Source: Pinctada imbricata (Eukaryota). From it: DNA of 64,000 bases. The stretch lies in NCBI GenBank assembly GCA_033119305.1, contig VSWD01000008.1, positions 62,068,347-62,132,346 on the forward strand, written 5' to 3'. The notes beneath the pieces were generated by a model, which saw only the letters and a program-made list of their open reading frames with translations, did not search any database and was not told the origin of the DNA. The position numbers and the translations under genes were made by a program. Positions 13,021 through 62,524 of the stretch are shown piece after piece. Position 1 is the stretch's first letter. Each line of letters begins with the position of its first letter.

Positions 13021-14270
13021 TTTGGTATCTGTGATAAAACTTTATCTCGGTGTTACTCGTACTTGCAAGATAGATCACAATGTGTGATGTGGAAAGGTGT
13101 TCTATCTGAGCAAAGAGAGGTTTCTATTGGAGTCCCGCAGGGCTCGATTTTAGGGCCTTTGTTTTTCATTTTATTTGTTAACGACTACCCCAATGTCTTC
13201 AACTCTTCCGTTACAATATATGCTGACGACACCACACAAGGTGTCACTGACAAATCATTAGATGTTATAGAATGTAAGTTAAAAGAAGATTTATTAAACA
13301 GTGTGAAATGGATGAGGGATAACAAACTTACAATGAATCTAAAGAAAACACAATGTCTTTTAATTGGAACATCACAGAAATTGTTAAAATGTAGAGAGTT
13401 ATGTGTTAAAGTTGGAGAAACTGTGATAGAAAATGTGAAATGTGCAAAACTTTTAGGTGTTTATATTGATGAATGTCTTACTTGGTCCTATCATACAGAT
13501 GTTTTATACAAGAAATTAAGCCAACAAATAGGTGTTTTAAAGAGGCTAAGTACTTTTATGTCCAAAACGGCATTACTCAGAATGTATAATTCTATAGTTT
13601 TTCCACATTTTAATTATTGTTGTACTGTGTGGCATAATGCAAAGAACAAGACACACATAGAAAAGCTTTTTAGATTGCAGAAGAGGGCAGCAAGAATCAT
13701 TTTAGATATAAAAATACCTAGGTCTGTGTCAACATCTAGTTTGTTTGAACATCTTAAATGGATGCCTCTGTCTGATTACTTTATTTATAGAGAGTCTATT
13801 CTTGTTTTTAAAGTTTTACATGGGCTCACACCTGAATATTTGAATGTTTTTAGCTTTGTAAATGAAATACATACAAGAAACACAAGACAGAGAGCAGTAA
13901 ATCTTATTTATGTCAAGAGAGCAAGAACAGAATATTTTAGAAGATCTTTTATCATTTCGGGTGCATCTTTATGGAACTCTTTGCCTGATTTTATTAGAAA
14001 CTCTACAACATTGTCATCTTTTAAAAACGGGTATCTGAAGCATTACTTTGACTCCTAAATTATTACATGGATATTGATGTTGTTTTACAGGTATGTATTT
14101 TTGTAAATGAACTGTGATATTTAGGTTTTATTTCATTAAGGTGATACAATGGACTTAATTTACTTAATATGTACATATTTTTAAGACAGGACCACATTGT
14201 AAACTAGTTCATTTTATAGCTAGATGTGCTATCCTGTATAAATAAAGGAAACAATTAAAAAAATAATAAT
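13021..14270 (+). mobile_element. 5'-truncated non-LTR retrotransposon (LINE), CR1/L2-like. It carries the RT C-terminal half plus the downstream conserved domain, a 3' UTR and an A-rich tail (aataaaggaaacaattaaaaaaataataat)
   Basis: RT motifs GVPQGSILGPLFF and YADDT. Downstream LRMYNSIVFPHFNYCCTVW...LQKRAARII is typical of CR1/L2/Jockey-group elements. Upstream frames are broken. Confidence 0.7.
13063..14058 (+). CDS. Reverse transcriptase ORF fragment (331 aa) of the LINE above
   Basis: Supplied ORF; the PQG..LGP and YADD boxes are read in the translation. Confidence 0.75.
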   Translation: MQDRSQCVMWKGVLSEQREVSIGVPQGSILGPLFFILFVNDYPNVFNSSVTIYADDTTQGVTDKSLDVIECKLKEDLLNSVKWMRDNKLTMNLKKTQCLLIGTSQKLLKCRELCVKVGETVIENVKCAKLLGVYIDECLTWSYHTDVLYKKLSQQIGVLKRLSTFMSKTALLRMYNSIVFPHFNYCCTVWHNAKNKTHIEKLFRLQKRAARIILDIKIPRSVSTSSLFEHLKWMPLSDYFIYRESILVFKVLHGLTPEYLNVFSFVNEIHTRNTRQRAVNLIYVKRARTEYFRRSFIISGASLWNSLPDFIRNSTTLSSFKNGYLKHYFDS

Positions 14271-17710: not shown

Positions 17711-18531
17711 GTAATCAAAGATGACAGCGCTTACCTCGAAGGCATCATTGTCCCATGACCAGCATCTATACCTACATTGCACAAAGTATTTCCAGATGCA
17801 TCATCCACATAAGTTTGGTTGATAAAAAATTCAAAGAAGGCTGGAAATGAAGATTCTAATTTTACCATACCTGGCAAATCAAGTGTGAAATATTGGTCAG
17901 ATGCAGCATCTGTACAGTGCATTGCAGTAAGCATCCTCAGATACATCACCAACACAAGTTTTTTTTTATTGATCTAGGATTTAAAATAGGCTGGAAATGG
18001 ACCTGTCCCATTTTACTTAACCTGATTGCTCAAGCATGGAATGTGGACAAGTGCAGCATCTGTACCATGAATTGCATTAAGCATCCTCAGATGCATCATC
18101 AATGCAAATTTGGTTGATGTACTCGACTTATAGTAAGACTGGAATGGACCTGCCCCATTTTACCTAACCTGCTCACTCAAGCATGAAATGTAGGTCAGAT
18201 GCAGCCTCTGTACCACGCAGTGTTATAAGCATCCTCAGATGCATCATCCATGCAAGTTTGGTTGATGTAGGACTTATAGTAAGGCTGGAATGGACCTGTC
18301 AACTTTTACCTACCCTGCTCTCTCAAACATGAAATGTAGGTCAGATGCAGCCTCCGTACCATGCTTTGTTGTAAGCACCCTCAGATACATCATTCATGCA
18401 AGTTTGGTTGATGTAGGACCTATAGTTTGGCGGGAATGGACCTGTCCCGTTTTGCTTAACCTATGTTGCAGATGCCGACGACAGGCGATAGCATAAGCCT
18501 CCCTCTACTTTGCGAGGTGAGCTAAAATTAT
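17711..18531 (+). mobile_element. Family F1 element: 5' gtaatcaaagatgacagcgcttacctcg, ~6 copies of a 124-bp satellite (17760-18470), a short GACGAC microsatellite, a 3' hairpin and gagctaaaattat
   Basis: Termini match the element at 241-1684. The satellite is related to satellite B (aaatgtaggtcagatgcagc...catgcaagtttggttgatgtag). Confidence 0.65.
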
Positions 18532-22470: not shown

Positions 22471-24193
22471 TGACATGGCATGGCATGACATGGCAATCAC
22501 ATGACAAAGATCTGATAACAGAAAAGATGTGATGATAAATCCACTATTTGAATATAAATATTCAAATAATATAAAAGTCTATGGACAATTCACAAATGGG
22601 AAATGTGACGAATGGACAGGTGGGCTCTACTGAATGTGGGACTTTTTTTCTGTCTTCTATAATTCTATACACTTAAATGTTGACATACAGTCTGCCAGTT
22701 ATGCTGAATGAGTAAGATATTTCATAATGTATTTTATATAAGAATGTTATAGAACATGCAGTCATTTTTGAAAGAATATACATTTATGAGGAATATGATT
22801 CCGCGAGATTATTTCTTTTTTAGATCTAACATGCTGTATTCAGATCAACTTTATGATCTGTATTCCATGCAAATAATTCTTTTTTTTAATGGTTCGCTAC
22901 TGTACTAACAAGGAGATCAAATAAGCTTTTTCAGTTGAACTTCAGGACAAATCCAAATTTCATACGACTTTTAAAAGAGGAATTTCAGACCCTCTAAATT
23001 CGAACATTTATCAGATAAAAGATCAGTATTTCAAAGCAACAATTTGAAAAAAATAATCTTATACATCATTACTTGGCATACAAATGTATTTCTTGTAAAC
23101 CTTCAATGATGGTACATGTACCATCCAAAACAAGCAGACTTCCAACCTTGAAGCATGAATTATACAACTATTTTGGCATTACCTAAGCCACTGACATTGT
23201 TACCCCTTTTCAAAGCACCAAACAGACTGAGGAAGAAAGGTTTAAAAGTGAAAATGACAATTTTCAAAATCAGAGGACCTACAAAACTCAATTCTAAAAG
23301 CCAAATCCCAGAATACCAGATGAGTATCTAGCACTTCTGCTAAATAATGTTCCAAAGACTTCCTCAAAATATGGCCTAGTTCTGATTATTTGTATTAAGA
23401 CAAATTCATGCTTATGTCTACTAGAAAAGAGAGTAGGTTACAGGTAATGTAAAGGTTAATATAAACTGTAGGGAGGTCAAACAAGGACACAATATCCTGT
23501 CATACAGTAGTACCTTGGCAGATTATTGGTACCGATAATTTCCTTTTGGTTATCTACACCTTGACGGAAAGTTGCCCTGAAAATTGAATTTTCATTAATT
23601 TCAACCAAAAAAAAAAGGATTCATACTTCATGATTTTCAAAAAAATAAAAAGTAACACATGAGACATAATGTTCGCGGTCAAAATGCACAATGTCGTGTT
23701 ATTTTGTTTTGTATGTAAAATGATGCAGCAATGATGTGAATTGGCTTGCACTGAAATTCCATTAAGCTCTTTATTTTGACAGACCTGCAGCCTGTTTCAC
23801 AAAAATTCTCATGAAAAATCTCTGGAATTTTCGTAACTTTTGATTGCTTAGTTTTACTTTATAACTTAAGATTAAGCAAAGTTTTGTTTCTGAATGTATA
23901 TCTAGTATGTAGAAATGATATTCGAAAACATCATACAACATTAATAAACTTTAAAACTTTATTCAATGGAGAAAGTTACGAAAACTCCTGATTTTTTTGT
24001 AAGAACTTTTGTAAAACATGCTGATGCATTGCAACAGTCAAAAGAAGCTAGCAATAAAATCAATTTAGTTCCTAACTGACAATAGTTATGTTAATAGACT
24101 TTTTTTCTAAAACAAATTCTTTTCAACTCAAAATATAATACAGTGTTGTTTAAGATTAAGCACTGCTGGCTGCTTTAAGATTCTTTCTTTATC

Positions 24194-26191
24194 GGGTACC
24201 TGTAAAGTGCGAAACGAAACAAAAACGAAACGAAACGAAACGAAACAAATCGAAACAAATTGAAACGAAACGAAACGAAACGAAACAGATCGAAACGAAA
24301 CAAAACAGATCGAAACGAAACGAAACAGATCGAAACGAAACAAAACAAAACATAAAACTTAAAGAAAATGAGAAAAAGAGGAAAAATCGCCGAAAACGAA
24401 TATTTCAAGACAAGATCTTATTGAAGGGTCAGGGGGTACCACTCTCCTCCTGCCGCCTCCCCCCTCCCCGTGGGGGGAGGGGGTCTTGGGCGGTCAAGAC
24501 AAATGTTTAAACTTTAAAGTGTAAATTGGTGCAATAGTGAAGTTATTTGGGTTATTTCCTTTTTTAAACCTTGAATAAAGCCTGTGTTTGTGAAACACGA
24601 ATGCCCCCGGTGGCATCTTTGTTAGTATAAACGCCATTTTCTGTTAAGTACGTGAAAAGTCAAAGTCAAGGTGACGAGGACAAAACCTTTTGCTAACAAT
24701 GAAATGGTCTTCTCACAAGGAATACACATGTGAAATATGAAAGCCCTATCACTTACTATTCAAAAGTTATGCCCAATGTTAAAGTTTTTGAAAAGTAGGT
24801 CAAAGGTCAAGGTCAGGGGGTTAAAACTTTTGGTATCAATGGAAAGGTCTTGTCACAAGGAATACACATGTGAAATATGAAAGCCCTATCACTTACCATT
24901 CAAAAGTTATGCCCAATGTTAAAGTTTTTGAAAAGTAGGTCAAAGGTCAAGGTCAAGGTCACAAGGTCAAAAATTTTGGTATCAATGGAAAGGTCTTGTC
25001 ACAAGGAATACACATGTGAAATGTGAAAGCCCTAACATTTACCATTCAAAAGTTATGCCCAATGTTAAAGTTTTTAGTTCGGACAAACAGACAGACAGAC
25101 AAACAGACGGACAGGCCAAAAACTATATGCCCCCGAATCTGTGATTCCGAGGGCATAAAAAAGAAATAGACCTGTTTAGATGAAAAACTAAGGTGAGCGG
25201 AGCGAGCCTGAAGTATTTGAAAAATGAATTGAAAATTGTGGCGAGCGAAGCGATCGGGAAAAAATTTTAAGGTATATATAGATGAATTTCGTGGTAATTT
25301 TTAGAATTGAGATTATGTACATGAACGCATAAGAGCAAGATTATTTATATTAAGAGTAATTTTCTAATTTTTTTGGGTTACTGTTACCCTCCCAATCATC
25401 TGTCCCTCCTCTCGCCCCCTTTCCTCTCCTCCCGCCCCCTTTCTCTCCCCTCCCTTTGTCCCTGTCCACCCCCTCATTATTGCCTTCAACCGTTAGTTCT
25501 TGTGGCTGGAGGGTTTTTTAAAGAATCAAAGTTGACGATTAAAACATAATATATACGGTATATAGCACAATTGCATTTTAAAGGAGAGTGATTGGGATGA
25601 ATAACCTCGTCACAGACGGAAAAATATTATTTAGCAGGGAGGAGTCTAGCGCAGAGGAAACGGAACTGTTCCGTTATGTGTATTTGAAAATTTTATCAGA
25701 AAAATGAGAACAATTAAAAACTGGGGGGCAGATTTCGTTTAAAAAGGATAAGATTTTTTCCTGAAATATGCCCCCACCCCGTTTTATGATCTCATTACGG
25801 TGTCATAGCGTGGTTTTCTATCCCCTCCCTTTTATTCCACTTAAATACATGAATGGCATTTGACATTTACTTTTTTTAATTGTCAACTTTGACTCTTTCA
25901 AGAAACCCTCTCTGCACTAGTTACAAATGTAGAACTCTTGGATTAAGGCAATATTACATGCTGCTCTTGTCTTGAAATATTCGTTTTCGGCGATTTTTCC
26001 TCTTTTTCTCATTTTCTTTAAATTTTATGTTTTGTTTCGTTTCGTTTCGATCTGTTTCGTTTCGTTTTGTTTCGTTTCGATCTGTTTCGTTTTGTTTCAA
26101 TTTGTTTCGTTTCGTTTCGATTTGTTTCGTTTCGTTTCGATTTGTTTCGTTTCGTTTCGTTTTTGTTTCGTTTCGCACTTTACAGGGACCC
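24194..26191. mobile_element. Non-autonomous DNA transposon with ~235-bp terminal inverted repeats (GGGTMCCTGTAAAGTGCGAAAC...; each contains a (GAAAC/GTTTC)n array) and a perfect 9-bp TSD, TTCTTTATC. MULE/Merlin-like by TSD length. It carries a nested F3 element
   Basis: TSD at 24185-24193 and 26192-26200. Arm 24194-24425 is the reverse complement of 25965-26191 at ~95% identity. No ORF. Confidence 0.6.
24581..25162 (+). mobile_element. Family F3 element nested inside the long-TIR element
   Basis: 5' cctgtgtttgtgaaacacgaatgcccccggtggcatctttgttagt, 3 units, (ACAGAC)n, 3' atgcccccgaatctgtgattccgagggcat. Confidence 0.65.
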
Positions 26192-26374
26192 TTCTTTATC
26201 ACATTTTTTCTGATACAAAAATTTGGTTTTTATATATATGAGGGCTGATTGATGTGTTGTGAGCCTCGTATTTAAGGATTTGAATCTTATTAGACATTTT
26301 GAATTACTTTTCTACATAATCCCCTTTAGTATCTATGCAGTTTAAGGGCCTCAATACCACTTTTAAAGAACTCC

Positions 26375-26912
26375 TTATCTGGTCAGAAAGCCATCCACTG
26401 CAAGTATGACATCATCATTGGACTGAAAGTGGGTGCCAGAAATAGCTACTTTCAGTTTTGGGAATAGATGAAAGTCTGATGGAGCAAGATCAGGTGAATA
26501 AGGCGGATGCTCAATCAAATTAAAGCCACAATCATGTATGGCAGCCATGGCAGTGACAGACTTGTGAACACGAGCATTGTCCTGATGGAGCAACACACCA
26601 TTAACTGGTGAGCTTTCCGCTTAAGTTTAATATTTTCCCGTAACTGTGTCAGAAGTGACGCATAGTATGTGTCATTGATTGTTTGTCCTTTTTAGAGATA
26701 ATCTATTGGCAGAATACCTTCTGCAACCCAATAATCCAAGGCTCACAACAGATCAGCCCTTGTAGCAAAAGTTTCGAATGAATATTTCCAATACTGAAAC
26801 AGTACAAAGATGCAAATTTAATTCCTACTAGTTTTGACGATTGGAAAAAAACCCCAGACATATCTGTACTGATAAATTGTAAGCTTATGGCAAATATTAT
26901 CAGAGAAATCAT
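26375..26912 (-). pseudogene. Mariner-like (Tc1/mariner, DD34D) transposase remnant with a frameshift and an internal stop
   Basis: LLHQDNARVHKS...HPPYSPDLAPSDFHLFPKLK signature. An upstream frame gives INDTYYASLLTQLRENIKLKRKAHQL (stop and frameshift near 26600). A further frame gives ..LICCEPWIIGLQ. Confidence 0.7.
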
Positions 26913-30819: not shown

Positions 30820-33800
30820 CTCCCCCCTCCCTCTAAGTTACTTTGACCTTAGGCCAAAATGCAAAATGATGTGAAACCTTTGAGTCATGGGCAACATCAT
30901 ACTAAAACATGAAAGTAATTCATTACATTGTTTGAGGTAAAGCCCAAACATGATTGGCATATATAATTTCATTATAAGCATATTTAAAGAAATTGACTTT
31001 GGTCACATGACCTTGGATATAGGTGATCTGAAATCTACACTCACTGACGAAGATTAAGTACCCGAAACATGCATGTCTGGTCCATGCTGAAAACTTATCT
31101 GTTTTTAAATGATGCTATTGAATTTGAAGACGTTTAGCATTGTATGGATCATGAGCATCAAAAAACTGAATTAGTGATTGGATACACAGTTCAAAATATA
31201 AAGCCTAAACGTTATTAGCATAGACAATTTCAGCCTGGACATGCTTAGCATATACAATTTCATTACCAAAGTAAGAAGCTACCTTAACCATGTGACCTTG
31301 GGACAATGTGATAAGAAACATTCAGTCCTTAGAAATAACATACTAAAATATGAAAACAATTGTAAGAAGGGTTCAGGAGATATAGCCCAGACAATATTAG
31401 TACGTACAATTTCATTAAAAAGAACTAAATGATCTTGACCTTGGGCACATGACCTTGGGTCAAGATGATAAGAAACCCTCCAATCCTGAGCAACAGCATA
31501 CTATAGTATAAGAGTGATCCAGTATACGATTCCACAGATATAGCCCAGACTCAATAGCATTTACAATTTCATTAAAAAATGTAATACTTGACCTTAGTCA
31601 TATGACCTTGGATCAAGAAGGTGTGAAACCTTTGGGTCATCAGCACCATCATACTAAAATATGACGTGATCTGATCACGGTTCAAAAGATTAAGCCTGGA
31701 CATAATACATGTAACAAATACAATTTCATTTAAAATATACTAATTGACCTTGACTTTGGTCACATGACCTTGAGTCAATGTGATGTGAAACCTTTACGTG
31801 ATAAGCAACAACATACTAAAATATGACGGTGATCTGATAAATAGTTCAAAGAGATACAGCCCCAATGGGATAGCATATACAATTTCATTTAAATGTACTT
31901 AGTAACTTTGACCTTAATCAAATGACCATGGGTCCAGGTGAAACCTTTTGGTCATGACTAAATACATTCTTAAACTTGAAAGCAATCCAGTATGCAGTCC
32001 AAGGGATAAAGCCTAAACAAGAATGTATCTACAATTTCATTAAAAATGTAGTAAGTGACCTTGGCCTTGGGTCAAGGTGATGTAAAACCTTCCGGTCATA
32101 AGCAAAAACATACTTAAATATGAAAGTGATCCGGCAAACGGTTCAAGAGATATAGCCCGGACAAGAATGTATGCACAATATCATTAAAAATAGCAATCCA
32201 AGGAATGCTCGTGTCGCCTGCGAAGCGGCTTGATTATTATTCTAGAAAGTGGATCAAAATTATTGGTAACAGTAGAAAAGTTTTGTCAAATGAAATTCAT
32301 TTGAAATATCAGACCTCATAATTACAAATTAAAAGATATGGTCATTCTCAAATTTTCAGAAAATAGTGTCAATCATCTAGGCAAAAGTCACTATGTAAAA
32401 ATTTGTAACGAAAAGGTCTCATCATAAGAAATATCAAAGACCTATCACTTACCAATTAAAAAATATACACAACCTTAATTTCTTAGAAAAGAAGGTCAAA
32501 CAGTTAGGTCAAGGTCAAACATTATGGTATGTGTAGAAATGCATTGTTACGAGGAAAATACATGTGAAATAGCAAAGCCCTATCACCTACCAATCAAAAG
32601 ATATAGCCAATTTGAATTCTCTTGAAAAGTAGGTCAAATATCTAGGTCAAGATCACAAGGTTAAATATTATGGTCTGTGTAGAAAGGTCATGTCACAAGG
32701 AATACACATGTGAAATATCAAAGCCCTATCACTTACATGTACCAATCAAAAGATATATACAATCTTAATACTTTTGAAAAGTGGGTCAAATATGTAGGTC
32801 AAGGTAAATAGGTCAGAAATTATGGTATGTGTAGAAAGGCGTTGTTACAAGGAATAAACATGTAAAATATCAAAGCCCTATCACTTACCATTAAAAAGAT
32901 ATAGTGAATCTTATCTTTTTTTCAAAAGTAGGTCAAATATCTAGGTCAAGGTCACAAGGTCAAAAATTATGGTGTGTGTAGAAAGGTCTTGCCACAAGGA
33001 TTGCATGTGTGAAATATCAAAGTCCTAACCCTTACCAATCAAAAGATATATCAATTCTTAACTTTTTTGAAAAGTAGGTCAAATATGTAGGTCAAGGTCA
33101 CTAGGTCAAAAGTTATGGCATGTGTAGAAAGGTCTTGTCACAAGGAATACACATGTGAAATATCAAAGCCCTATCACTTACCTTTCAAAAGTTATGGGCT
33201 GTGACACCCAAAGTGTGACAGACAGATGGACTGACTGACGGACGGACGGACAACGGACAAAGTGATCCCTAAGTGTCGCTATGCTTCGCAGGAGACACAA
33301 AAATGCACTAAGTGACCTTGACCTTGGTCACATGACCTTGGGTCAAGGTGATGTGAAACCTACGGGTCATAAGCAACAACATGCTAAAATATGAAAGTGA
33401 TCGGGCCAACGTTTCCAGAGATATAGCTTGACAGGAATGTATTCATAATTTCATTAAAAATGCACTAAGTGACCTTGACCTTGGTCACATGACCTTGGGT
33501 CATGGTGATGTGAAACATTTGGGTCATAAGCAACAACATACTAAAATATGAAAGTGATCGGGCGAACGGTTCAAGGGATATGGCACAGACTGGAAAGTAT
33601 GCACAGTTTCATTAAAAATGCACTAAGTGACCTTGACCTTGGTCACATGACCTTGGGTCAAGGTGATGTGAAACCTTCGGGTCATAAGCAACAACATACT
33701 AAAATATGAAAGTGATCCGGCATTCGTTCAAGAGATATAGCCCGGACAGGAATGTATACATAATTTCATTAAAAATGCACTAAGTGACCTTGACCTTGGT

Positions 33801-34150
33801 CACATGACCTTGGGTCAAGGTGATGTGAAACCTTCAGGTCATAAGCAACAACATACTAAAATATGAAAGTGATCCGGCAAATGGTTCAAGAGATATAGCC
33901 CGGACAGGAATGTATGCATAATTTCATTAAAAATGCACGAAGTGACCTTGAACTTGGTCACATGACCTTGGGTCAAGGTGATGTGAAACCTTCGGGTCAT
34001 AAGCAACAACATACTAAAATATGAAAGTGATCGGGCTAACGGTTCAGGCGATATAGCCCGGACACGATGTGTGACAGACGGACAGACAGACAGACAGACG
34101 GACGACGAAGGCAAAACCAATATGTCTCCTCTCTGTTGGGGGGGAGACAT
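30820..34150 (+). repeat. Family F5 array: a ~158-bp unit (gcactaagtgaccttgaccttggtcacatgaccttgggtcaaggtgatgtgaaacc...). There are ~9 diverged copies, then a nested F2 insertion, then 5 near-identical copies. It ends in (GACA/GACGGACA)n plus the hairpin atgtctcctctctgttgggggggagacat
   Basis: Periodicity and the terminal 8-bp-stem hairpin (ATGTCTCC/GGAGACAT) read directly. Confidence 0.75.
32186..33302 (+). mobile_element. Complete family F2 element (~8 x 120-bp units) inserted into the F5 array between aaaaat and gcactaag, with at most a 1-bp duplication
   Basis: F2 5' and 3' termini are present. Flanks are tcattaaaaat | element | tgcactaagtgacc. Uninterrupted F5 units read cattaaaaatgcactaagtgacc. 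Confidence 0.7.
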
Positions 34151-34605: not shown

Positions 34606-36100
34606 CAGTGTTTGTGAAACACAAATGCCCCCGGTGGCATCTTTGTTAGTATGAACACTAATTTCTGTTAAGTACATGTATGTGAGGTCACTGGGTTAAA
34701 AGGTCAAAGGTCAAGGTCACGAGGTCAAAAATTTTGGTATCAATATAAAGGTCTTGTCACAAGGAATACACATGTGAAATATGAAAGCCCTATCACTTCC
34801 CATTCAAAAGTTATGCCCAATGTTAAAGTTTTTGAAAAGTAGGTCAAAGTCCAAGGTCAAGGTCACAAGGTCAAAAATTTCGGTTTCCATGGAAAGGTCT
34901 TGTCACAAGGAATACACATGTGAAATATCAAAGCCCTATCACTTTCCATTCAAAAGTTATGGTCAAGGTTAAAGTTTTTAATAAGTAGGTCAAAGGTCAA
35001 GGTCAAGGTCACGAGGTCAAAAATTTTGGTATCAATGGAAAGGACTTGTCACAAGGAATACACATGTGAAATATGAAAGCCCTATCACTTCCCATCCAAA
35101 AGTTATGTCCAATGTTAAAGTTTTTGAAAAGTAGGTCAAAGGTCAAGGTCAAGGTCACGAAGTGAAAAATTTTGGTATCAATGGAAAGGTCTTGTCACAA
35201 GGAATACACATGTGAAATATGAAAGCCCTATCACTTCCCATCCAAAAGTTATGCCCAATGTTAAAGTTTTTGAAAAGTAGGTCAAAGGTCAAGGTCAAGG
35301 TCACGAGGTCAAAAATTTTGGTATCAATGGAAAGGTCTTGTCACAAGGAATACACATGTGAAATATGAAAGCCCTATCACTTCCCATTCAAAAGTTATGT
35401 CCAATGTTAAAGTTTTTGAAAAAGTAGGTCAAAGGTCAAGGTCACGAGGTCAAAAATTTTGGTATCAATGGAAAGGTCTTGTCACAAGGAATACACATGT
35501 GAAATATGAAAGCCCTATCACTTCCCATTCAAAAGTTATGCCCAATGTTAAAGTTTCTGAAAAGTAGGTCAAAGGTCAAGGTCAAGGTCACGAGGTCAAA
35601 AATTTTGGTATCAATGGAAAGGTCTTGTCACAAGGAATACACATGTGAAATATGAAAGCCCTATCATTTCCCATTCAAAAGTTATGCCCAATGTTAAAGT
35701 TTTTGAAAAGTAGGTCAAAGGTCAAGGTCAAGGTCACGAGGTCAAAAATTTTGAAATCAATGGAAAGGTCTTATCACAAGGAATACACATGTGAAATATG
35801 AAAGCCCTATCACTTCCCATCCAAAAAATATGCCCAATGTTAAAGTTTTTGAAAAGTAGGTCAAAGGTCAAGGTCAAGGTCACGAGGTCAAAAATTTTGG
35901 TATCAATGGAAAGGTCTTGTCACAAGGAATACCCATGTGAAATATGAAAGCCCTATCACTTCCCATTCAAAAGTTATGTCCAATGTTAAAGTTTTTCGGA
36001 CAAACAGACAGACAAACAGACAAACAGATAAACAGACAAACAGACGGACAGGCCAAAAACTATATGCCCCCGAATCTTTGATTCCGGGGGCATAAAAAAA
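34606..36100 (+). mobile_element. Family F3 element: ~10 x 142-bp units, a long (ACAGAC)n and the 3' hairpin atgcccccgaatctttgattccgggggcat
   Basis: Termini and units read directly. A partial duplicate of the 5' terminus (gttgtgaaacac) lies 25 bp upstream. Confidence 0.7.
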
Positions 36101-36944: not shown

Positions 36945-38645
36945 CCCTCGCACTGCCCCCTCTAGGCTGTATAAAAAGATTTTGACCTTTTCCAATCTGT
37001 GACCTTGACCTTTGGCCTTTTAAAAATCAATAGGGTTCTTCCTCTTTTTAAAAGCTATCATTGTATGAAGTTTGGTTAAGGTCCAATCAAAACTGCGTCC
37101 TCTAGGCTGTATACAAGGATTTTGATCTTTTCCAATCTGTGACCTTGACCTTTGACCTAAAAAAGTCAATAGGGTACTTCCTCTTATAAACTATCAAGAG
37201 TATGAAGTTTGGTTAAGACCCAATCAAACCTGTACCCTCTAGGCTGTATACAGGGATTTTGACCTTTTCCAACCTGTGACCTTTGATCTTTGACCTAAAA
37301 AAATCAATAGGGTACTTCCTCTTATAAACTATCAAGTGTATGAAGTTTGGTTAAGACCCAATCAAACCTGCACCCTCTAGGCTGTATACAGAGATTTTGA
37401 CCTTTTCCAACCTGTGACCTTTGATCTTTGAGCTTGAAAATCAATAAGTTTCTTCCTCTTATAAACTATCAAGAGTATGAAGTTTGGTTAAGACCCAATC
37501 AAACCTGCACCCTCTAGGCTGTATACAGGGATTTTGACCTTTTCCAACCTGTGACCTTTGATCTTTGACCTAAAAAAATCAATAGGGTACTTCCTCTTAT
37601 AAACTATCAAGAGTATGAAGTTTGGTTAAGACCCAATCAAACCTGCACCCTCTAGGCTGTATACAGAGATTTTGACCTTTTCCAACCTGTGACCTTTGAT
37701 CTTTGAGCTTGAAATCAATAAGTTTCTTCCTCTTATCATAAACTATCAGTGTATGAAGTTTGGTTAAGGCCCAATCAAAACTGCACCCTCTAGACTGTAT
37801 CCAAGGATTTTGACCTTTTCCAATCTGTGACCATGACCTTTGACCTAAAAAAATCAATAGGGTACTTCCTCTTATAAACTATCAAGAGTATGAAGTTTGG
37901 TTAAGACCCAATCAAACCTGCACCCTCTAGGCTGTATACAGGGATTTTGACCTTTTCCAACCTGTGACCTTTGATCTTTGACCTAAAAAAATCAATAGGG
38001 TACTTCCTCTTATAAACTATCAAGAGTATGAAGTTTGGTTAAGACCCAATCAAACCTGCACCCTCTAGGCTGTATACAGGGATTTTGACCTTTTCCAACC
38101 TGTGACCTTTGATCTTTGACCTAAAAAAATCAATAGGGTACTTCCTCTTATAGAACTATCAAGTGTATGAAGTTTGGTTAAGACCCAATCAAACCTGCAC
38201 CCTCTAGGCTGTATACAGGGATTTTGACCTTTTCCAACATGTGACCTTTGATCTTTGACCTTGAAAATCAATAGGGTTCTTCCTCTTGTCATAAGCTATT
38301 AGTGTATGAAGTTTGGTTAAGGCCCAATCAAAACTGCACCCTCTAGACTGTATCCAAGGATTTTGACCTTTTCCAATCTGTGACCTTGACCTTTGACCTA
38401 AAAAAGTCAATAGGGTACTTCCTCTTATAAACTATCAAGAGTATGAAGTTTGGTTAAGACCCAATCAAACCTGCACCCTCTAGGCTGTATACAGGGATTT
38501 TGACCTTTTCCAATCTGTGACCTTGACCTTTGACCTACGACCTTGAAAATCAGTAGGGTTCTTCTTCTTGTCATAAGCTATCAGTGTATGAATTTTGGTT
38601 AAGATCCAATCAAAACTGCACCCTCTAGGCTGTATACAAGTATTT
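36945..38645 (-). repeat. Family F4 array: a ~120-bp unit, ~14 copies (ctctaggctgtatacagggattttgaccttttccaacctgtgacctttgatctttgacc...). It is the reverse-strand counterpart of the AGGTCA satellites, ending next to an imperfect palindrome atccccctgcaactatgttgcaaggggata
   Basis: Units contain tgaccttgacctttgacc, the reverse complement of ggtcaaaggtcaaggtca. Confidence 0.75.
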
Positions 38646-38699
38646 TGTGACACACACACTCACTTGCACACGAACGAGGGCGTTACTATATCCCCCTGC

Positions 38700-39100: not shown

Positions 39101-42100
39101 AAGTCAAAAATTTATTTATAACATCATAATCCATAGTTCATGTAAATTAACTTGTCAATACTACTCATAGTTTTCTCCCTATTGCCTTACACACAAGGAT
39201 CAAGTTCAAAATCAAAAGTTTTTGCTGTGTTGAATTCGCCTCATAATGGTCTTTCACCATGTAAAAGTTACAAGTAGCTACTCCAAATAGTTTTCTGCCA
39301 ACAAACTTAAATGCAAAAGCTTAACCAAAATGTTGACAGAGACAGAAAAAACAATGGACTGACGAATGGGCTGATGGACTGGACAAACTTTGCCATTTCC
39401 TTTAACTCATTTGGTCATAAGCAACAAGTGTGAAGTCCCTTTTATATTATATTCCAGTAAGCATGAGGAACAAACACATTCCTATATGATGTTGCTATTA
39501 ATAAGTATATCATTAGGGTATAAAAGTTCTTTTTGCTTATGAATGTAGAAGGAATTTTTTTAAACAGACAGGCAGTCAGGACAAAAGCAGTATGCTCCAT
39601 AATAAGATTATATAAATAAGGATGTCTTTCTCTACTAGGCCATAACTTTATATACATATATATACATTTACTACAATCAAAACATAAATTTCTACACTAA
39701 AGGATACGATATGTATACCTGAAATATCTAGGTCTAGCAACTATCCTATGCTTAATAAATAAAGCAGTTGTGGTTGCAAACATTTTTTCAGTGAAACAAT
39801 GTGAAGAAAAATATAGATAAGGCATATATATTTAGGTAATACAGTAGAAGATAAACAAGTATAACTGAACTTTTAAAAAAAGAAGGTTAATCAAAATTAG
39901 ACGGTAGAAATGAATATGCTGTGTACCAAATACATTTTCACTATTTGGCCAACACTATGATGTTTATATCAAGAGTGAAAAAAGAGGGTGAGTCAATGAT
40001 ATGTGTAGAGGTAAAGGATGTTAACTATTAATCAACCGTACAAAACTCTTGGTTTTCATGCCTCTGAGATGACAAATGATTACATGAACACAATCTTTAT
40101 AGTGATATTTAATCTATCTTCGATGATCTTATAATGTTCTCCTTTACAATCTTATCTTGAATTTAAATAGAAGGATAATATGTTTTTTATAAGAAAAATT
40201 CAAAGTCCCTTACGAAAAAGGGCGCTTTTTTATGCTTGATCTATTATAAATACAGATTTGGTTGCGGACTAAAACAATTTTCAAATTCATAAAAGAGTTT
40301 TCTCAAAATATTTCAAAATTTTTACCTTTCATGGTAGATTTTGTACCTTATCATAGTCGCTCCCTTTGATATCAGATATGACAACGGATGCTGGAAAGAC
40401 ACTTGGTCACTGCACTATGATAATGGCTCACTTGAGCCTTTAGCTCTAGTGAACTGACAAAAGGGGAATGCGCTCTAAGATAATAATTACCTGTTAAGTG
40501 TTCTCCAGTTATTTGTCTTTTTGTCCGCAGCACTACATGGAGAAAAATTATGCATTTCCACTGCTTGGGGGAAAACATTTTTTACAATTTCAGCGACAGG
40601 AACTGCAAAATGAAGTAATTTATTCAGCCATTGCCCTATTCAGATACTAACTCAGACCTAAAACAATCTAACTGCTGTGTCAAAGCTTTAGTCACAAAAA
40701 AAAATTATATTTAACATCAAATCTGTTCTGAATTCTTGACGATGTTTTTTATTTTGTGTTTTCAGAATACATTTGTGTCTTTTCAATGAAAAACATTGCA
40801 GAAAGAAGTTAACTCAGAAACGATATGTTGAATCAGGTCTGTACATATCATAGCCTTAGTACATGTATAGAAAAACTGACAGATAAAGGTCTATGTAATC
40901 CTTTACATATGTTCATACGCAGCACTTTTAACTAGCAATGTGTTACTTTAAAAAGTACTTGACGGCTATTATGCAGACAGGGGAATTTAGGGAAAGCATG
41001 CTCAATATTGGGATTGACATATTCCCAAACATCCCAAGGGGAAATGAACAAGAATTCTCTGAGGAGACTGAAGCTCTTCTGGTTGTTTGGATTAAAGTCA
41101 CCATAGTGAATGAAGTACTTATACCCTTTATATAGGGCTCTAGCTCCTCAATTGTGTTTTGCTGACATCTAAAGCTAACCTTTTAGTTAGAAATGGAAAA
41201 AAGAAATTCAGCATGGATTTTGTTGAACATCATGAAATAAGGCGTAACAGTCAATTTTAGGTAAAACTGCAGAAAAAAACTCGATTAATTCCTAAATATG
41301 ACTTAAATAACACAATATGCATTACAAAATATGTATGATATTAACCCAAATGGTCTAGCTTGTAACAATCAGGAAAGATGAGAAAAATATCAAAGCTTTG
41401 TCTCTTGCACATCTCTTTTGTGTCTTGAAAGAAATTTCAAGTAAAATTTTGAATTTTTGAAAGGTCAAACATCAAGACCATTAGGTTAAAAACCTTTGAT
41501 TGATGGACAAACAGACAAAAGTCACCAATCTTCATGTATACACAGGTAATAAGGTAATAAACTCTAGGCTTGAGTATTGTCAGGTACCCTACGATACCAT
41601 ATGGTATCACAATATGAGGTTGCGATATGATAGTAGCACGATACTTCCAACTTTATATTTCTTTCATTATTATTTTTTAGGCTAATGTAATTTGTTTGGG
41701 ATCTTTGTTCAGATAATATTGATTGTCTGATAAAGATGAAAGAATGATCTTAAATTTGGTGAAAGAAAAAAAAAAACATTGAATTTGATGCCTATTTCCA
41801 GGTTTTTACCTTTCAAATCTCAAATAATTTAAGGAAGGTGAAAAAAAGTCATTAAATGTTGTTTTGAAGTAGATATTAACCTTTCCAATTTGAATTAACC
41901 ATTGTTGCAATATTGTGATACCTGGGTCACAATACAATACGCGTATCGTACAACCTCGTGATCAATACTATCAATATATTGTTACAAGCCTAATAAACAC
42001 CAATGACCGTTAGTGACACTCAGGAGTAAAGAGGTAGTTTGTGAATTGTAACAATGAGAACGAAAATCAAATTAATGCAAAGTATATCATTAGAACGATA

Positions 42101-43317: not shown

Positions 43318-44190
43318 ACAAAAATAGCAATTCAAGGAATGCTTGTGTCACCTGCGAAGTGGCAATTTCTTCTTTTTTTTTTTTTAAAGTAGGTCAAATA
43401 TCTATTTCAAGGTCATTAGGTAAAAAATTATGGCATGTGTAGAAAGGTCTTGTCACAAAGCATACACATGTGAAATATCAAAGCCTTATCATTTACCAAT
43501 CTAAAGACATAGCTAATCTTAGTTTTTCAAGAAGTAAGCCAAATATCTAGGTCAAGGTCACTAGGTCAAACATTATGGTAAGTGTAGAAAGACCTTGTTA
43601 CAAGGCATACACATGTGAAATATCAAGGCCTTATCCCTTACCATTCAAAAGATAAAACCAATCTTAGCTTTTTTTAAAAGTAGGTCAAATATCTAGGTCA
43701 AGGTCACTAAGTCCAAAAAAAAATTGTAGGTGTAGAAAGGTCTTGTCACAAGGAATACACATGTGAAATATCAAAGCCCTATTCCTTACCATTCAAAAGA
43801 TAAAACCAATCTTAGCTTTTTTGAAAAGTAGGTCAAATATCTAGGTCAAGGTCACTAATTCCAAAAAAAAAAAAAAAATGGTAGGTGTAGAAAGGTCTTG
43901 TCACAAGGAATACACATGTGAAATATCAAAGCCCTATCACTTACCAATTAAAAGATATACAAGTAGTCAATCTTAGCTTTTTTGAAAAGTAGGTCAAGGT
44001 CACTAGGTCAAAAATGTTGGTTTGTGTAGAAATGTCTTGTCACAAGGAATAAGCATGTGAAATATCAAAGCCCTATCACTTACCAATCTAAAGTTATGGG
44101 GTGTGACACCCAAAGTGTGACAACAGACGGACAACGGACAATGAGATCCCTAAGTGTTGCTATGATTTGCAGGCTACACAAAAAGACAGC
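43318..44190 (+). mobile_element. Family F2 element (~6 units; poly-A slippage inside the units)
   Basis: 5' aaaaatagcaattcaaggaatgcttgtgtcacctgcgaagtggc; 3' aaagttatggggtgtgacacccaaagtgtgacaacagacggacaa...gcaggctacacaaaaa. Confidence 0.65.
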
Positions 44191-44260: not shown

Positions 44261-44372
44261 CTGTTTAATTCATGCCAATTTTCCTTCTTTTGCTTCATGT
44301 TGTTTGCAGGAGGGTAGTTATGCATATGTATCAAATGTGGGAAGCGATCCTTAATCATTTCTGCCACCATTA
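44261..44372 (-). CDS. SPEF1: SPEF1-like gene B exon 2 (CH/DUF1042 domain): (V)MVAEMIKDRFPHLIHMHNYPPANNMKQKKENWHELN(R). Acceptor ttgtttttgatgtag; donor AG|GTACAG
   Basis: Aligns with human SPEF1 VLVAEVIKFYFPKMVEMHNYVPANSLQQKLSNWGHLNR (memory). Enters in phase 1 and exits in phase 2, consistent with exons 1 and 3. Confidence 0.7.
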
Positions 44373-46584: not shown

Positions 46585-47600
46585 AGTCCCCTACCGGCGG
46601 CATATATTTATGTCCTGCAACTCTGGCTATGAATTACTCTTCAATTAAACATATACATGTATGAGTTTAAATTAAACTTACTGTCTGTGCAGCTCAGTTC
46701 TGAGGTTTTATCTGCTTTATCGATTCGAAAAAGAGGTCAAGTGTGACGAAAGTTGAACTTGTTCTGTAACTATCCAAGACTAAGCTGAGTATCAAATTTC
46801 ACCTGAATATCTCTGTTTGTTGCAGAAAAAAGTCTGGAAAACTGACAAAAACTGAATTTTCCAAGTCATAAAGGGGCATAACTCCTCGAAAAATAGGTCA
46901 AACGTGACATAAGTCGAACTTGCTCTGTAACTATCCTAGACCAAGCTGTGTATCAAATTTCATCTGAATATCTTCATCCGTTGCAGAAAAAAAGTACAGA
47001 AAACTGACAAAAACTTAATTTTCCAAGTTATAGAGGGGCATAACTCCTTGTAAAATAGATCAAGCCTGACAAAATTCAAACTTGCTCTGTAAGTATCCAA
47101 GACCAAGCTGTGTATCAAATTTCATCTGAATATCTCCATTCGTTGCAGGAAAAAGTCCGGAAAACAGACAAAAAGTGAATTTTCCAAGTCATCAAGGGGC
47201 ATAACTCCTCGAAAAATGGGTCAAACGTGATGAAGGTTAAACTTGCTCTGTAACTATCCAAGACAAAGCTGTGTATCAAATTTCATCTGAATATTTCCAT
47301 TCGTTGCAAAAAAAAGTCCGGAAAACTGACAAAAACTGGATTTTCCAAGTCATCAAGGGGCATAACTCCTCGAAAAATGGGTCAAGCGTGACGAAAGTCG
47401 AACTTGCTCTGTAACTATCCAAGACCAAGCTGTGTATCAAATTTCATCTGAATATCTCTATCCATTGCAGAAAAAAGTCCGGAAAACTGATATTCGGACA
47501 GACGGACAGACGGAGGGACAGACGGACGGACAGACAGACAGACGGACAGACAGACCGAGAGGAAACTAAGAGTCCCCTTCGGCGTTGCCGGTAGGGGACT
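46585..47600 (+). mobile_element. Family F6 element: 14-bp terminal inverted repeats AGTCCCCTACCGGC, an internal ~160-bp satellite x6 (46720-47490), (GACAGACGGACA)n, and the 3' hairpin agtccccttcggcgttgccggtaggggact
   Basis: 5' tagtcccctaccggcggcat (46587) against the reverse complement of 3' ...ccggtaggggacta (47586). Satellite units read directly. Confidence 0.6.
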
Positions 47601-49860: not shown

Positions 49861-49914
49861 TGTGTTTGTGAAAAACAAATGCCCCCGTCGGCATCTATGT
49901 CAAATTGTATAATG

Positions 49915-49946
<32 letters not shown>

Positions 49947-50409
49947 ATATTTTGGTATCAATGGAAAGGTCTTGTCACAATGAATACACATGTGAAATAT
50001 CAAAGCCCTATCCCTTACCATTCAAAAGTTATGGCCAAGGTTAAAGTTTTTCAAAAGTAGGTCAAACTCTAAGGTCAAGGTAACAAATTTTGGTATCCAT
50101 GGAAAAATCTTGTCACAAGGAATACACATGTGAAATATCAAAGCCCTATCCCTTACCATTCAAAAGCTATAGCCTGCAAGGTTAAAGTTTTTCAAAAGTA
50201 GGTCAAACTCTAAGGTCAAGGTAACAAGGTTAAAAATTTTGGTATCCATGGAAAGATCTTGTCACAAGGAATAAACATGTGAAATATCAAAGCCCTATCT
50301 CTTAAATTTGTACCATTCAAAAGCTATGGCCAAGGTTAAAGTTTTTGCAGACAAACAGACAGGACAAATACTATATGTCCCCGAATCTTTGATTACCGGG
50401 GCATAAAAA
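49861..50409 (+). mobile_element. Family F3 element (3 units)
   Basis: 5' tgtgtttgtgaaaaacaaatgcccccgtcggcatc; 3' (ACAGAC)n...atatgtccccgaatctttgattaccggggcat. Confidence 0.65.
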
Positions 50410-50663
50410 TCACTGTTGAATGACAAAGGAGCTATCACAGAAAAACCTTTAAAATTGTCTGGAAACTGTTCCGACAACAGTAAATTGAATTCAAAGTTGC
50501 TCAAGTCAAGGTGGACAAATTTCATGTTTTGTGCAGTTCCCATAATTTGGGCACGACATTTTATTATGCTGTCGTTGACTGAGGTCCCTTACCCGAGGCT
50601 TGTCAGCAATTCATAAGTTAATTCCGGGAGTAGGCCCTGATCGAACTGCCCGCTTTGCGGGCT

Positions 50664-51070
50664 GCTGATGATTGTGACATAAATGCCATTGCATAGGTAG
50701 AAATTGGGTCATTCCCCGCTTCCTTAAATTACATATTTTTACTTCCATCTGTGACATTAATTGTTTAAAATCCCTCTTAAAACGGAGACATTACACAGTT
50801 TTCAATCCAAAGCCATCTACATTGTTGTTGTGACACACTGGAAAGACCGATGCTTGCGATTAGAGCGGAGACCATGTCACATCACAACAACCGATTTAGG
50901 TGGAATTTGAGTGATAGATATACAAGGTGATTGAAAACTATCATCTCACCATTTTTAAGAGAGACTTTAAGCCATGAATGTCGTAGATAGAAGTAAAAAT
51001 ATGTCAGAAAGCTGGGAATGACCTAATAATACCCATGCAATGCAATATGGTATTCATGTCACAATCATGA
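50664..51070. mobile_element. MITE-like element with ~100-bp imperfect terminal inverted repeats (ATGATTGTGACAT...GGTCATTCCC...). It has an internal palindrome and no ORF
   Basis: Left arm 50664-50780 against the reverse complement of 50945-51070. TSD not resolved. Confidence 0.35.
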
Positions 51071-51157
51071 CCACAATACGGGTAGTTCTATCGGCAGGCA
51101 GGTCCATCTCCCTAAATAAACTTATGAATTGCCGACAAAGGATTTTGGTAAGGGTAT

Positions 51158-51634
51158 CAGTCAATGTAGTCCGACTTGCAGACCTACGACGGTGTTATCT
51201 GTCTTTTCGTCTTCGGTCTGACTGCTATGCATAGGCAAAACTTGAGAATTTCGGTGCGAAATTAATTTCGGCAAGTCGTCCTTTTTTTTTTGGACAAATT
51301 CCAGTCTCTTCAACCAAAAAAGAAGTCACCCAGTCCTCCTGTCCCTAAAATGTCCCCTCCAAGCCTAGTTTCGCCTCTTCCTCTCTTCCGATTTTCCTCT
51401 GATCGACTACATTTTGTCATACGCACAGAGGTGAAACCAGGCCTAGAGGGAATTTTTTAGGGGCTGGAGGACTGGGTGACTTATTTTTTGGTTGAAGAGA
51501 CTGGAATTTGTCAAAAAAAGGACGACTTGCCGAAATTAATTTCGCACCGAAATTCTCAAGTTTTGCCTATAGATAGCAGTCAGACCGAAGACGAAAAAAC
51601 AGATAACACCGTCGTAGGTCTGCAAGTCGGACTA
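51158..51634. mobile_element. Foldback-type MITE. Its ~185-bp arms are ~97% identical (TAGTCCGACTTGCAGACCTACGACGG...). The loop is ~110 bp and the perfect 9-bp TSD is CAGTCAATG
   Basis: TSD at 51149-51157 and 51635-51643. The arms were read and compared base by base. Confidence 0.6.
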
Positions 51635-51963
51635 CAGTCAATGGCACATAATACATGTAAAACTGCCCTTGCTTGAATCGCAAGAAGGATTTCAGTTTCC
51701 AAAATGAGCTGCAGACTGTGGTGGATTTTTTATATGCAACATACATCATACTTTATGTGATAATTGACCCTTCCGATTGCGGAGAAAAAATGCAAAATTT
51801 TGTGTCGTCACAATACTTTTACCTCGGACAAACAAGCTTCGAACCTCGGTCAAACATCAAAAGTGCATTGTGACGTCATGGAATTTCTCAAATTTTTCCC
51901 GCGTTCGGAAGGGTCAATTGATTCTGCATGGAATGAAAATAAAAGTCTCAAAGTATCATATAC

Positions 51964-52105
51964 CCCCATCTGCAAAGTCTCTCGATAGATTTTTTTTAGG
52001 TCTTGTCAGTGGGAAAGTATCAATCCAACTGTATAACTCCTCCAGTTCTGCATCGTCATACTGATCATCGTTTTCTGAAACTGTAAGTTTGTCCAATGAT
52101 GCCAT
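51964..52105 (-). CDS. SPEF1: SPEF1-like gene B exon 1 (start codon at 52105): MASLDKLTVSENDDQYDDAELEELYSWIDTFPLTRPKKNLSRDFADG(G). Donor G|GTATAT
   Basis: Matches the human SPEF1 N-terminus MASSVDEEALHQLYLWVDNIPLSRPKRNLSRDFSDG (memory). Phase-1 exit is completed to Val by exon 2. Confidence 0.7.
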
Positions 52106-55638: not shown

Positions 55639-56109
55639 TCTGTGTTTGTGAAACACGAATGCCCCCGTTGGCATCTTTGTCAGTAAAACAGATGAAAAGT
55701 AGTTTCACATTTGAGGTCAAGGTCACAAGGTCAAATTTAGTATTCATGGAAAAGTATTGCCACATGGAATTCATATGTGAAATATGAACGCCCTATATAT
55801 CACTTACCATTCAAAAGTTATGGCTAATGTTTAAATTTTCGACACCGTATTAGGTCAAACTCCAAGGTCAAAAATTTTGGTATCCATGGAAAGGTCTTGT
55901 CACAAGGAATACACATGTGAAGTATGAAAGCCCTATCACTTACCATTCAAAAGTTATGCCCAAGGTGAAAGATTTTCAAAAGTAGGTCAAACTCTAAGGT
56001 CAAGGTAACAAATTTTGGTATCTAAGGAAAGGTCTTGTCACAAGAAATGTGAAATATGAAAGCCCTATCCTTCACCATTTAAAAGTTACGCCCAATGTTA
56101 AAGTTTTTC

Positions 56110-56142
<33 letters not shown>

Positions 56143-56316
56143 ATGTCAAAAATTTTGGTATCCATGGAAAGGTCTTATCACAAGGAATACACATGTGAAA
56201 TATGAAAGCCCTATCACTTACCGTTCAAAAGTTATGGCCAAGGTTAAAGATTTTGCAGACAAACAGACAGACAGACCAAAAAGTATATGCCCGAATCTTT
56301 GATTACGGGGGCATAA
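55639..56316 (+). mobile_element. Family F3 element (4-5 units)
   Basis: 5' tctgtgtttgtgaaacacgaatgcccccgttggcatc; 3' (ACAGAC)n..tatatgcccgaatctttgattacgggggcat. Confidence 0.65.
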
Positions 56317-61109: not shown

Positions 61110-62524
61110 CTACAAACGAGAAGAAAAAAATATGTGAGAAAAGAAGGTGGTAGTGATGGGAACTGATCAGTCAAATCTTATCAACTTATTTTTATTCATT
61201 TATTTACTTATCTTCGCGTTAAACAAGCATTTTGTGTGTAGTATGTGCATTACAAAGAACCTCCTTCGGCAGTAAATTTTCTTAAGATGAACTCTTGAAA
61301 TATTTAAGACCAAGACGAGAGGAAACTAATGACCTCATTCGGTTGTAACAGTAGGGTACTAGAATCAGTAAGATGTGCTGATGATAACATTTGACTGATA
61401 AATTACACGAATGAAAAACAATTACTCGTGACATAATTTGTACAAAAACACAAATAAAGTGTTAGCATGAACAAAAATGTTAGATTTCAGAAACATGGCA
61501 GCTGGCGTTCACTATAGAAATTTTAGTACTAGGCCTATTTCAGAAACGGTAGTAATTCTCCACTTTATAAATGCCAGCATGCCATAGTCGGTACAAGGTC
61601 ATTTTTTTAGAAATAGCATTGAGTGTAAGCTTCATTTATGAATTTAATACTGAACTGTACGTCAAAGTCCAAACTAAAAATTTGAAAATGGTAGTGGATG
61701 CCCCCTTCAAAAACGACACTATACCAAAATCTTAAATTGAAAAGAATCCAACGCACGAAATATGTCAATACATTACATGTACTTTTGGAATGTAATCACA
61801 TGACAACTAATAGCATAAAGTCACCAATAAAGATGTCAAAACATCTTTATTTGCAGCCTACCCTTACCACACCCTATATTTCTTTGATGTTGTAGAATGG
61901 CAAGTCTGCAACATTCGGTAGATATGAAATAGTTATTTTGGTTACAGCAAACAGAAAATATAGGTGCATGTGCAAAATGGAAGGTAGTCGTATTTTTGAT
62001 ATACATTTAACAATCGACTCGCGATTGAGGAGAAAAGAACTTGCGGCGAACCATCTTCATAAATCGCGGGTCCGATACGTCCGTCGTCCTACGGAGAGTA
62101 GGACGACGGACGTATTGGACCTGCGATTTATGGAGATGGCGGCGAACATGATTCACGATAATCTAATATAGTCACGATGCAGATTTTCTCTGAGGACCTA
62201 CGCGATATAACATCGGGAGAATGTAGCTAGAGGTTGTTGCTGAAAATGTTGTCTATCATATTAGTTTCCTTCAACTAAACTGGAAGTTTTCATTGATTTG
62301 TACCGAAATTAGGCTTACTTCTTGACGTTTTTCATCCTTTTACGATTTTTTGGTGTTTTTGTAGCCGTATATTTCAGTGCAATGCTTTAAAATCGAAAAG
62401 TTTATTTGATATTTCAGACAGCCATACATTTGACCTCTTATCGAAATCTGAACCACTTGAAAAATTGGGCCTATTTTCCAGCTATCCGAACCTTCTCCTT
62501 TCCTAGATTCTGAATGTTACTTAC

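Follow-up and report, generated by a model that had tools for sequence, protein, structure and literature searches.

The length of a target-site duplication (TSD) is set by the spacing of the staggered cut made by the transposase, and it is used for superfamily assignment (PMC4122938). hAT transposases produce duplications of 8 bp, PIF/Harbinger of 3 bp, Tc1/mariner of TA and Mutator/MuDR of 9–12 bp (PMC4122938). Among the described systems, the foldback-like Tm1 elements of nematodes, which include MITE-like members shorter than 0.5 kb, show 9-bp TSDs, are associated with a Phantom/MULE transposase and have been found nested with other inverted-repeat elements (PMC3169594). MULEs were present in all of the mollusc genomes surveyed, and MITEs accounted for a considerable share (PMC10294476).

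The locus analysed here lies in a 64-kb window, which is the whole stretch of DNA under study and to which all positions refer. We interpret it as a copy of a hairpin-type, non-autonomous class II DNA transposon with a 9-bp TSD, nested in an older foldback within intron 1 of a SPEF1-like gene, and assign this reading a probability of roughly 85%. The features of the element, none of which carries a strand, are given below.

51167–51634: young foldback element, 468 bp, non-autonomous, with termini TAGTCCGACTTGCAG.../...CTGCAAGTCGGACTA
51167–51378: left arm of the young element, ~212 nt, from the inverted-repeat search and arm alignment
51379–51426: unpaired centre or loop, ~48 nt, 73% pyrimidine on the + strand
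51427–51634: right arm, ~208 nt, from the inverted-repeat search and arm alignment
51158–51166: left TSD copy, CAGTCAATG, adjoining the first base of the left terminus
51635–51643: right TSD copy, CAGTCAATG

Compared with the Foldback/Phantom-type Mutator elements (Drosophila FB, nematode Tm1; PMC3169594), the young element is likewise nearly all long inverted repeat, as its arms make up ~212 + ~208 of the 468 nt around a 48-nt centre. Its 9-bp TSD falls within the ranges given for Foldback (8–10 bp) and Mutator (9–12 bp) elements (PMC3169594, PMC4122938). It further shares with Tm1 the 9-bp TSD, the small size (<0.5 kb), the lack of coding sequence and the nested position in another inverted-repeat element, and mobilisation in trans would apply to it as well (PMC3169594). 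The two systems differ in the composition of their arms: the TIRs of FB and Tm1 are composite arrays of short repeats, whereas the arms of the young element are unique sequence in which TRF found no tandem array of sub-repeats, so that classic composite Foldback arms are ruled out for it. The element at 24194–26191 of the same window fits the FB pattern much better.

The young element also resembles typical MITEs, which are short, AT-rich and non-coding, carry TIRs and a TSD, and lie in genic 5′ regions or introns. Its length is 468 bp, the longest open reading frames overlapping it encode 50–66 aa, and its TIRs are flanked by a TSD. Typical MITEs, however, have short TIRs (10–40 bp) around an unrelated core, whereas ~90% of the young element is inverted repeat. 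MITEs are, moreover, defined by high copy number. The label implies a multi-copy family, and with one copy known from the 64-kb window the element is a candidate MITE. Hairpin-RNA (hpRNA) and other inverted-repeat small-RNA loci, as well as MITE-derived miRNA genes, share with it an intronic position and, if it is transcribed, a long near-perfect duplex; the likeness is structural only, and the Rfam scores are sub-threshold.

Architecture of the 468-bp hairpin element

The order of the locus across 51158–51643 is CAGTCAATG / TAGTCCGACTTGCAG ... CTGCAAGTCGGACTA / CAGTCAATG. The repeat search resolved the structure into an outer inverted repeat (51158–51288/51513–51643; 131 nt, 95%) and an inner one (51286–51378/51427–51519; 93 nt, 88%) with a spacer of 48 nt. 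The termini TAGTCCGACTTGCAG and CTGCAAGTCGGACTA matched perfectly over 36 nt. In the gapped arm alignment, identity was 97.5% over the outer 122 nt, 96.1% over the outer 185 nt (7 mismatches; 94.1% once one 4-nt indel in a T-run is counted) and 93.8% over the outer 212 nt. The divergence of the arms corresponds to a K2P distance of 0.03–0.04, and the alignment of the full 468 bp with its own reverse complement gave 86.5% identity.

These values refine what the sequence-only reading had proposed, namely a foldback at 51158–51634 with ~185-bp arms of ~97% identity and a 110-bp pyrimidine-rich loop. The place was correct and the description of the arms was close to the 96.1% measured over the outer 185 nt. 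The span was not, as it took in the left TSD copy and omitted the right one. The loop has to be revised as well: pairing continues at lower identity to ~212 nt, which leaves an unpaired centre of ~48 nt, and most of the supposed pyrimidine-rich loop consists of the inner left arm, with its purine-rich complement on the right. This inner, more diverged stem is 78% pyrimidine on its left side. TRF detected a weak 8-nt sub-repeat, CTCTTCCT, in three copies in the centre of the element.

Folding of the element was highly stable. The calculated energy was −226 kcal/mol (z = −38) for single-stranded DNA and −364 kcal/mol (z = −37) for the gene-sense RNA, and in both cases none of 100 shuffled sequences was as stable.

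Searches for relatives of the element were carried out at the protein, nucleotide and RNA-family levels. The open reading frame of the arm had no homologue among 5.8 billion proteins, and the two open reading frames that overlap the element had no exact match among called ORFs, in collections that lack the host genome. Exact-pattern scans with the terminus (20/22 nt) and with a 22-nt segment from inside an arm found no match among viral, metagenome and prokaryote-genome contigs, where the host genome is likewise absent, and a full-text search of the literature did not find the terminus sequence. Within the 64-kb window there was no second copy of the element (best non-self match, E = 0.024) and no other credible match to its 15-nt terminus. 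The collections searched lack close relatives, the best relative of the window's reverse transcriptase (RT) being 73–75% identical and the best SPEF1 relative 65%. Since the host genome is not in them, the absence of further copies says little. No Rfam family reached its gathering score over the whole window. A permissive scan of the element gave MIR6445 as the best match (31.3 bits, E = 7e-4; gathering score 100), and the sub-threshold matches as a whole (20–31 bits against 77–100) involved unrelated plant and animal miRNA models on both strands. Membership of the young element in an Rfam family was rejected, as all scores lie far under the gathering thresholds.

Nesting in an older foldback and the target-site duplication

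The weak inverted repeats to the left of the young element are part of an older foldback. The young element sits ~25 bp inside the right end of this structure, and the nesting, which the earlier observation had missed, is an addition to it. The two features needed here, again without strand, are as follows.

50549–51668: older decayed foldback, ~643 bp without the insert (51167–51643), arms ~72% identical
50573–50581: internal empty-site counterpart, CGTTGACTG, in the uninterrupted left arm of the older foldback

The 9-mer CAGTCAATG occurs exactly twice in 64 kb, at 51158–51166 and 51635–51643. The pair alone is weak evidence, as two or more copies were found in 17 of 100 shuffled sequences and six other chance 9-mer pairs lie within the same 1.6 kb. 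Both copies adjoin the inverted-repeat termini exactly, for which the chance at a fixed position is ~4^-9 = 4e-6. The direct repeat stops at 9 bp, with no further matching base on either side.

The element was then excised in silico together with one 9-mer (51167–51643). After excision, the arms of the host foldback paired in BLAST as 50562–50807 versus 50929–51166 + 51644–51653. In the local alignment the pairing reached 50549/51668 and crossed the junction 51166|51644, where it was free of gaps. The reconstructed right arm before insertion reads ...TATCAGTCAATGGCACAT..., with a single 9-mer. Its counterpart in the left arm, CGTTGACTG, is the reverse complement of CAGTCAACG, is present as a single copy and equals the target at eight of nine bases; the empty-site alignment (...TGTCGTTGACTGAGGT... 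versus ...TGCCATTGACTGATA...) is collinear on both sides. This empty site is paralogous, as it lies in the opposite arm of the same foldback (72% identity), and not an orthologous allele. The empty-allele sequence expected from the reconstruction is ...GGTATCAGTCAATGGCACAT... / ...GGTAAGGGTATCAGTCAATGGCACATAATAC..., with the 9-mer once.

The restored pairing of the arms and the single 9-mer in the empty arm favour transposition with a 9-bp duplication, which supports the earlier claim of a transposon insertion with a 9-bp TSD. The 8-bp and 9-bp TSD models give an identical reconstructed empty site. A TSD of 9 bp, rather than 8 bp with a coincident base, is the preferred reading because it would leave perfectly symmetric ends, TAGTCC.../...GGACTA. 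The TA duplication of a Tc1/mariner (Stowaway-like) element was also considered, as the element starts and ends with TA, but this model cannot account for the 9-bp duplication. The empty site would then be expected to read 9-mer-TA-9-mer, and the other arm of the older foldback has one 9-mer and no TA. This candidate was rejected.

The older foldback ends in GGGCACG (50549) .../... CTGCCC (51668), and no TSD was recognisable in its flanks (CCATAATTT versus TTGCTTGAA). A third inverted-repeat element at 51762–51919 (158 bp, arms ~71% identical) is situated 45 bp from the exon-1 donor; it ends in AATTGACCCTTCCGA.../...TCGGAAGGGTCAATT and is possibly flanked by GAT (3 bp) on both sides. The first 1.4 kb of intron 1 thus contains a stack of three inverted-repeat elements. 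Judged by arm divergence, the 468-bp element is clearly the youngest of the three, and the term "young" applies in this relative sense (arm K2P of 0.03–0.04 against ~72% arm identity in the neighbours). Self-comparison of the window revealed no similarity of the 468-bp element to the neighbouring foldbacks or to the element at 24194.

Superfamily assignment and competing explanations

The proposed course of events is that of a cut made by a transposase supplied in trans. Such an enzyme would have cut the target CAGTCAATG with a 9-bp stagger, the element ends TAGTCC.../...GGACTA would have been joined to the cut target, and gap repair would have produced the 9-bp duplication. At that time the target would have lain ~25 bp inside the right end of the older foldback, already resident in intron 1, and the insertion point lies 330 bp downstream of the exon-1 donor of the SPEF1-like gene. 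The transposase was probably Mutator-like (MULE or Foldback-Phantom type), the kind to which the 9-bp duplication and the foldback architecture point most, and a Mutator/Foldback-like superfamily is accordingly the one we favour for the young element. The 64-kb window contained no autonomous partner, MULE ORF, or hAT or Merlin transposase gene. One further element, at 24194–26191 and unrelated to the young one, also has a perfect 9-bp TSD, from which it follows that transposases making 9-bp TSDs have acted in this genome.

The hAT end consensus is YARNG, and Merlin TSDs measure 8–9 bp. The young element might hence be a hAT-derived MITE, with a true 8-bp TSD AGTCAATG and an adjacent C that is due to chance or borne by the element, or a Merlin-derived one. 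Such an origin is possible, though we regard it as rather unlikely. MITEs of both groups are TIR-bounded and non-autonomous, as is the young element, and the empty site reads alike under the 8-bp and 9-bp models; the most parsimonious TSD is nevertheless 9 bp, which gives symmetric termini, whereas under the 8-bp reading one end would have an additional unpaired base and one base would have to match by chance (probability 1/4). The terminus TAG... is like the first three bases of the hAT consensus and TAGTC fits YARN, but the C at position 5 departs from YARNG. The TSD of another element of the window, unambiguously 9 bp long, also speaks against this alternative. Bivalves have hAT as one of their richest superfamilies of DNA transposons, and molluscs also possess Merlin, although the bivalve survey found the latter to be rare outside cephalopods (PMC10294476).

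The remaining explanations dispense with a mobile element or treat its transposon features as secondary. A functional hairpin-RNA gene (a long hpRNA/endo-siRNA locus or a miRNA precursor), with transposon features that are incidental or ancestral, would agree with the ~210-bp stem of the sense RNA at −364 kcal/mol and with the weak matches to miRNA-precursor models centred on the loop (MIR6445, 31 bits, E = 7e-4), and MITE-derived miRNAs have reportedly been documented in plants. We consider it very improbable: these matches are far under gathering (20–31 versus 77–100 bits) and spread over unrelated families and both strands, the stem is much longer than an animal pre-miRNA, and transposition by itself fully accounts for the TSD and the nesting. 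A local palindrome that never moved, formed as an inverted duplication when replication or break repair switched template or primed from a folded-back strand, would suit the single copy within what was searched, and foldback inversion via hairpin formation is said to be a known repair outcome. However, such an event would copy adjacent sequence in inverted form, while the arms match neither the flanks nor the window; it would not create a direct 9-bp duplication adjoining both ends, and the clean excision that restores the host foldback arm also argues against it, which makes this origin exceedingly improbable. Long-read libraries can yield palindromic chimeras, so that a chimeric fold-back read or a mis-joined palindrome in the assembly has to be weighed too. 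Such chimeras are large, exact and found at contig or read ends, whereas the present structure measures 468 bp, its arms differ by 7 mismatches and one indel around an asymmetric centre of 48 nt, and it has a 9-bp TSD and interrupts another repeat precisely; we give an artefact next to no credence. The preferred reading thus remains a transposon insertion with a 9-bp TSD.

The SPEF1-like gene, the surrounding window and the meaning of the insertion

The ~2-kb element at 24194–26191 has a perfect 9-bp TSD, TTCTTTATC, at 24185–24193 and 26192–26200, and termini GGGTACCTGTAAAGTG.../...CACTTTACAGGGACCC. Its TIR (GGGTACCTG...) is unrelated to the young element, and its arms of ~200 nt are made of (GAAAC)n-type 5/10-nt sub-repeats. 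By this architecture it is a textbook Foldback-like element. The sequence-only reading had named it as a different element with a 9-bp TSD, which agrees with its own TSD and unrelated TIR, and the window therefore contains at least two such elements.

The interior of the 24194–26191 element includes three copies (24646–25075) of a dispersed ~140–146-bp repeat. This ~146-bp unit (…GGTCTTGTCACAAGGAATACACATGTGAAATATGAAAGCCCTATCACTTACC…AAGTAGGTCAAGGTCAAGGTCA…) forms dispersed short arrays of 3–9 copies each, and its reverse translation yields 'DRALIFHMCIPCDKTF', a spurious ORF motif that recurs. The unit resembles satellite-like repeats that bivalve mobile elements carry, and it was not found in the literature or in the supplements to two Crassostrea gigas satellite papers. 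Its arrays are located as follows.

5257–5774: ~146-bp repeat array
24646–25075: ~146-bp repeat array, inside the 24194–26191 element
32428–33195: ~146-bp repeat array
34699–35996: ~146-bp repeat array
43378–44093: ~146-bp repeat array
49914–50346: ~146-bp repeat array
55732–56254: ~146-bp repeat array

A 138-bp unit is repeated 12 times at 36952–38647, within an intron of the SPEF1-like gene, and more tandem arrays lie at 320–843, 814–1593, 17879–18462, 33299–34064 and 46725–47490 (units of 124, 157, 146, 158 and 161 bp). Short satellite-like arrays are unusually frequent in the window.

Immediately to the right of the 24194 element, a C-terminal fragment of a Tc1/mariner-type transposase (…HQDNARVHKS…IEHPPYSPDLAPSDFHLFPKLK…) was recognised at 26378–26620 (−), with a match to Pfam DDE_3 just under the cut-off (E = 1.7e-5). 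A LINE reverse-transcriptase ORF of the RVT_1 type (331–346 aa) is found at 13018–14055 (+). Its best relatives, 60–75% identical, are on the ENA metagenome contigs ERZ26168041 and ERZ27264496/458, which evidently contain animal DNA and have only the LINE in common with the window. Two short matches to L002 were dismissed as low-complexity chance matches. Two compact palindromes, at 62051–62139 (42-nt arms, 93%, 5-nt spacer) and 7789–7918 (51-nt arms, 82%, 28-nt spacer), may be further small hairpin elements. An ORF of 176–179 aa at 10173–10709 (+), whose N-terminus is coiled-coil-like and which has an acidic tract (MSKISELKDRLREQEAYY…DEEEEDDYLTETDEE…), had no Pfam match; it may represent a gene with a single exon or a piece of a transposon.

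The young element itself belongs to the following gene context.

51964–52105 (−): coding part of exon 1 of the SPEF1-like gene, MASLDKL...ELYSWIDTFPLTRPKKNLSRDFADG (SRDFADG end), with donor GT at 51963–51962
51963–44373 (−): intron 1 of the SPEF1-like gene, ~7.6 kb, containing the young element
44261–44372 (−): exon 2 of the SPEF1-like gene, with AG acceptor, GT donor and compatible phase

Exon 1 by itself gave a partial CH_2 match, and the protein homology search found no homologues of it. When exons 1 and 2 were spliced, the product matched PF06294 CH_2 continuously over profile positions 1–61 (E = 1.1e-20, 73.9 bits against a cut-off of 27), and exon 3 (from 34479) matched profile positions 55–94 with 28 bits. 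The predicted exons 1–3 thus form a complete CH_2 (SPEF1-type) domain with canonical GT-AG sites. An exhaustive search with the SPEF1 CH domain returned 1577 relatives, the best of which were 52–65% identical; the nearest named ones are annotated as 'sperm flagellar protein 1(-like)', and the best are mostly from molluscs (Babylonia, Mactra, Haliotis, Batillaria, Plakobranchus, Lymnaea), with one nemertean. This points to a mollusc, or else another lophotrochozoan, as the probable host. The position first proposed for the insertion, in intron 1 of a SPEF1-like gene and 330 bp from exon 1, is confirmed, as exon 1 ends at 51964 and the CH_2 domain spans the splice.

Exon 2 (44261–44372, −) is duplicated: exon 2b, at 40490–40601 (−), encodes VPVAEIVKNVFPQAVEMHNFSPCSAADKKTNNWRTLNR, is 45% identical to it and covers CH_2 positions 24–61 (E = 2.4e-11). 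The two share their length of 112 nt and their phase, and 2b also has canonical AG/GT sites, which suggests that they are mutually exclusive alternative exons. Two top SPEF1 database relatives likewise match in two stretches.

As a nested transposon insertion, the event is ordinary and belongs to a known kind. It is most likely neutral within the intron, and nothing suggests a host function. A transcript through the element would form a ~210-bp double-stranded RNA stem within the pre-mRNA, and ideas of a regulatory role in the SPEF1-like gene (intronic dsRNA, small RNAs, an enhancer or alternative promoter) are speculative. We consider it improbable that the insertion is not inert, whether because the duplex is processed to endo-siRNAs or heavily A-to-I edited, or because foldbacks target the hairpin-prone ends of other foldbacks. 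If the endo-siRNA or editing version were true, a recent transposon insertion would be coupled to the regulation of a cilia/flagella gene; if structure-directed targeting were true, it would explain the three inverted-repeat elements stacked within 1.4 kb after exon 1.

The significance of the finding lies mainly in annotation, which should mask the element and record it as a non-autonomous foldback DNA transposon. Should the insertion prove polymorphic, it would provide a clean presence/absence marker. The nested arrangement supplies a built-in empty-site control, which can be reused when no second genome is at hand, and the element documents the relatively recent activity, in this genome, of a transposase that makes 9-bp TSDs.
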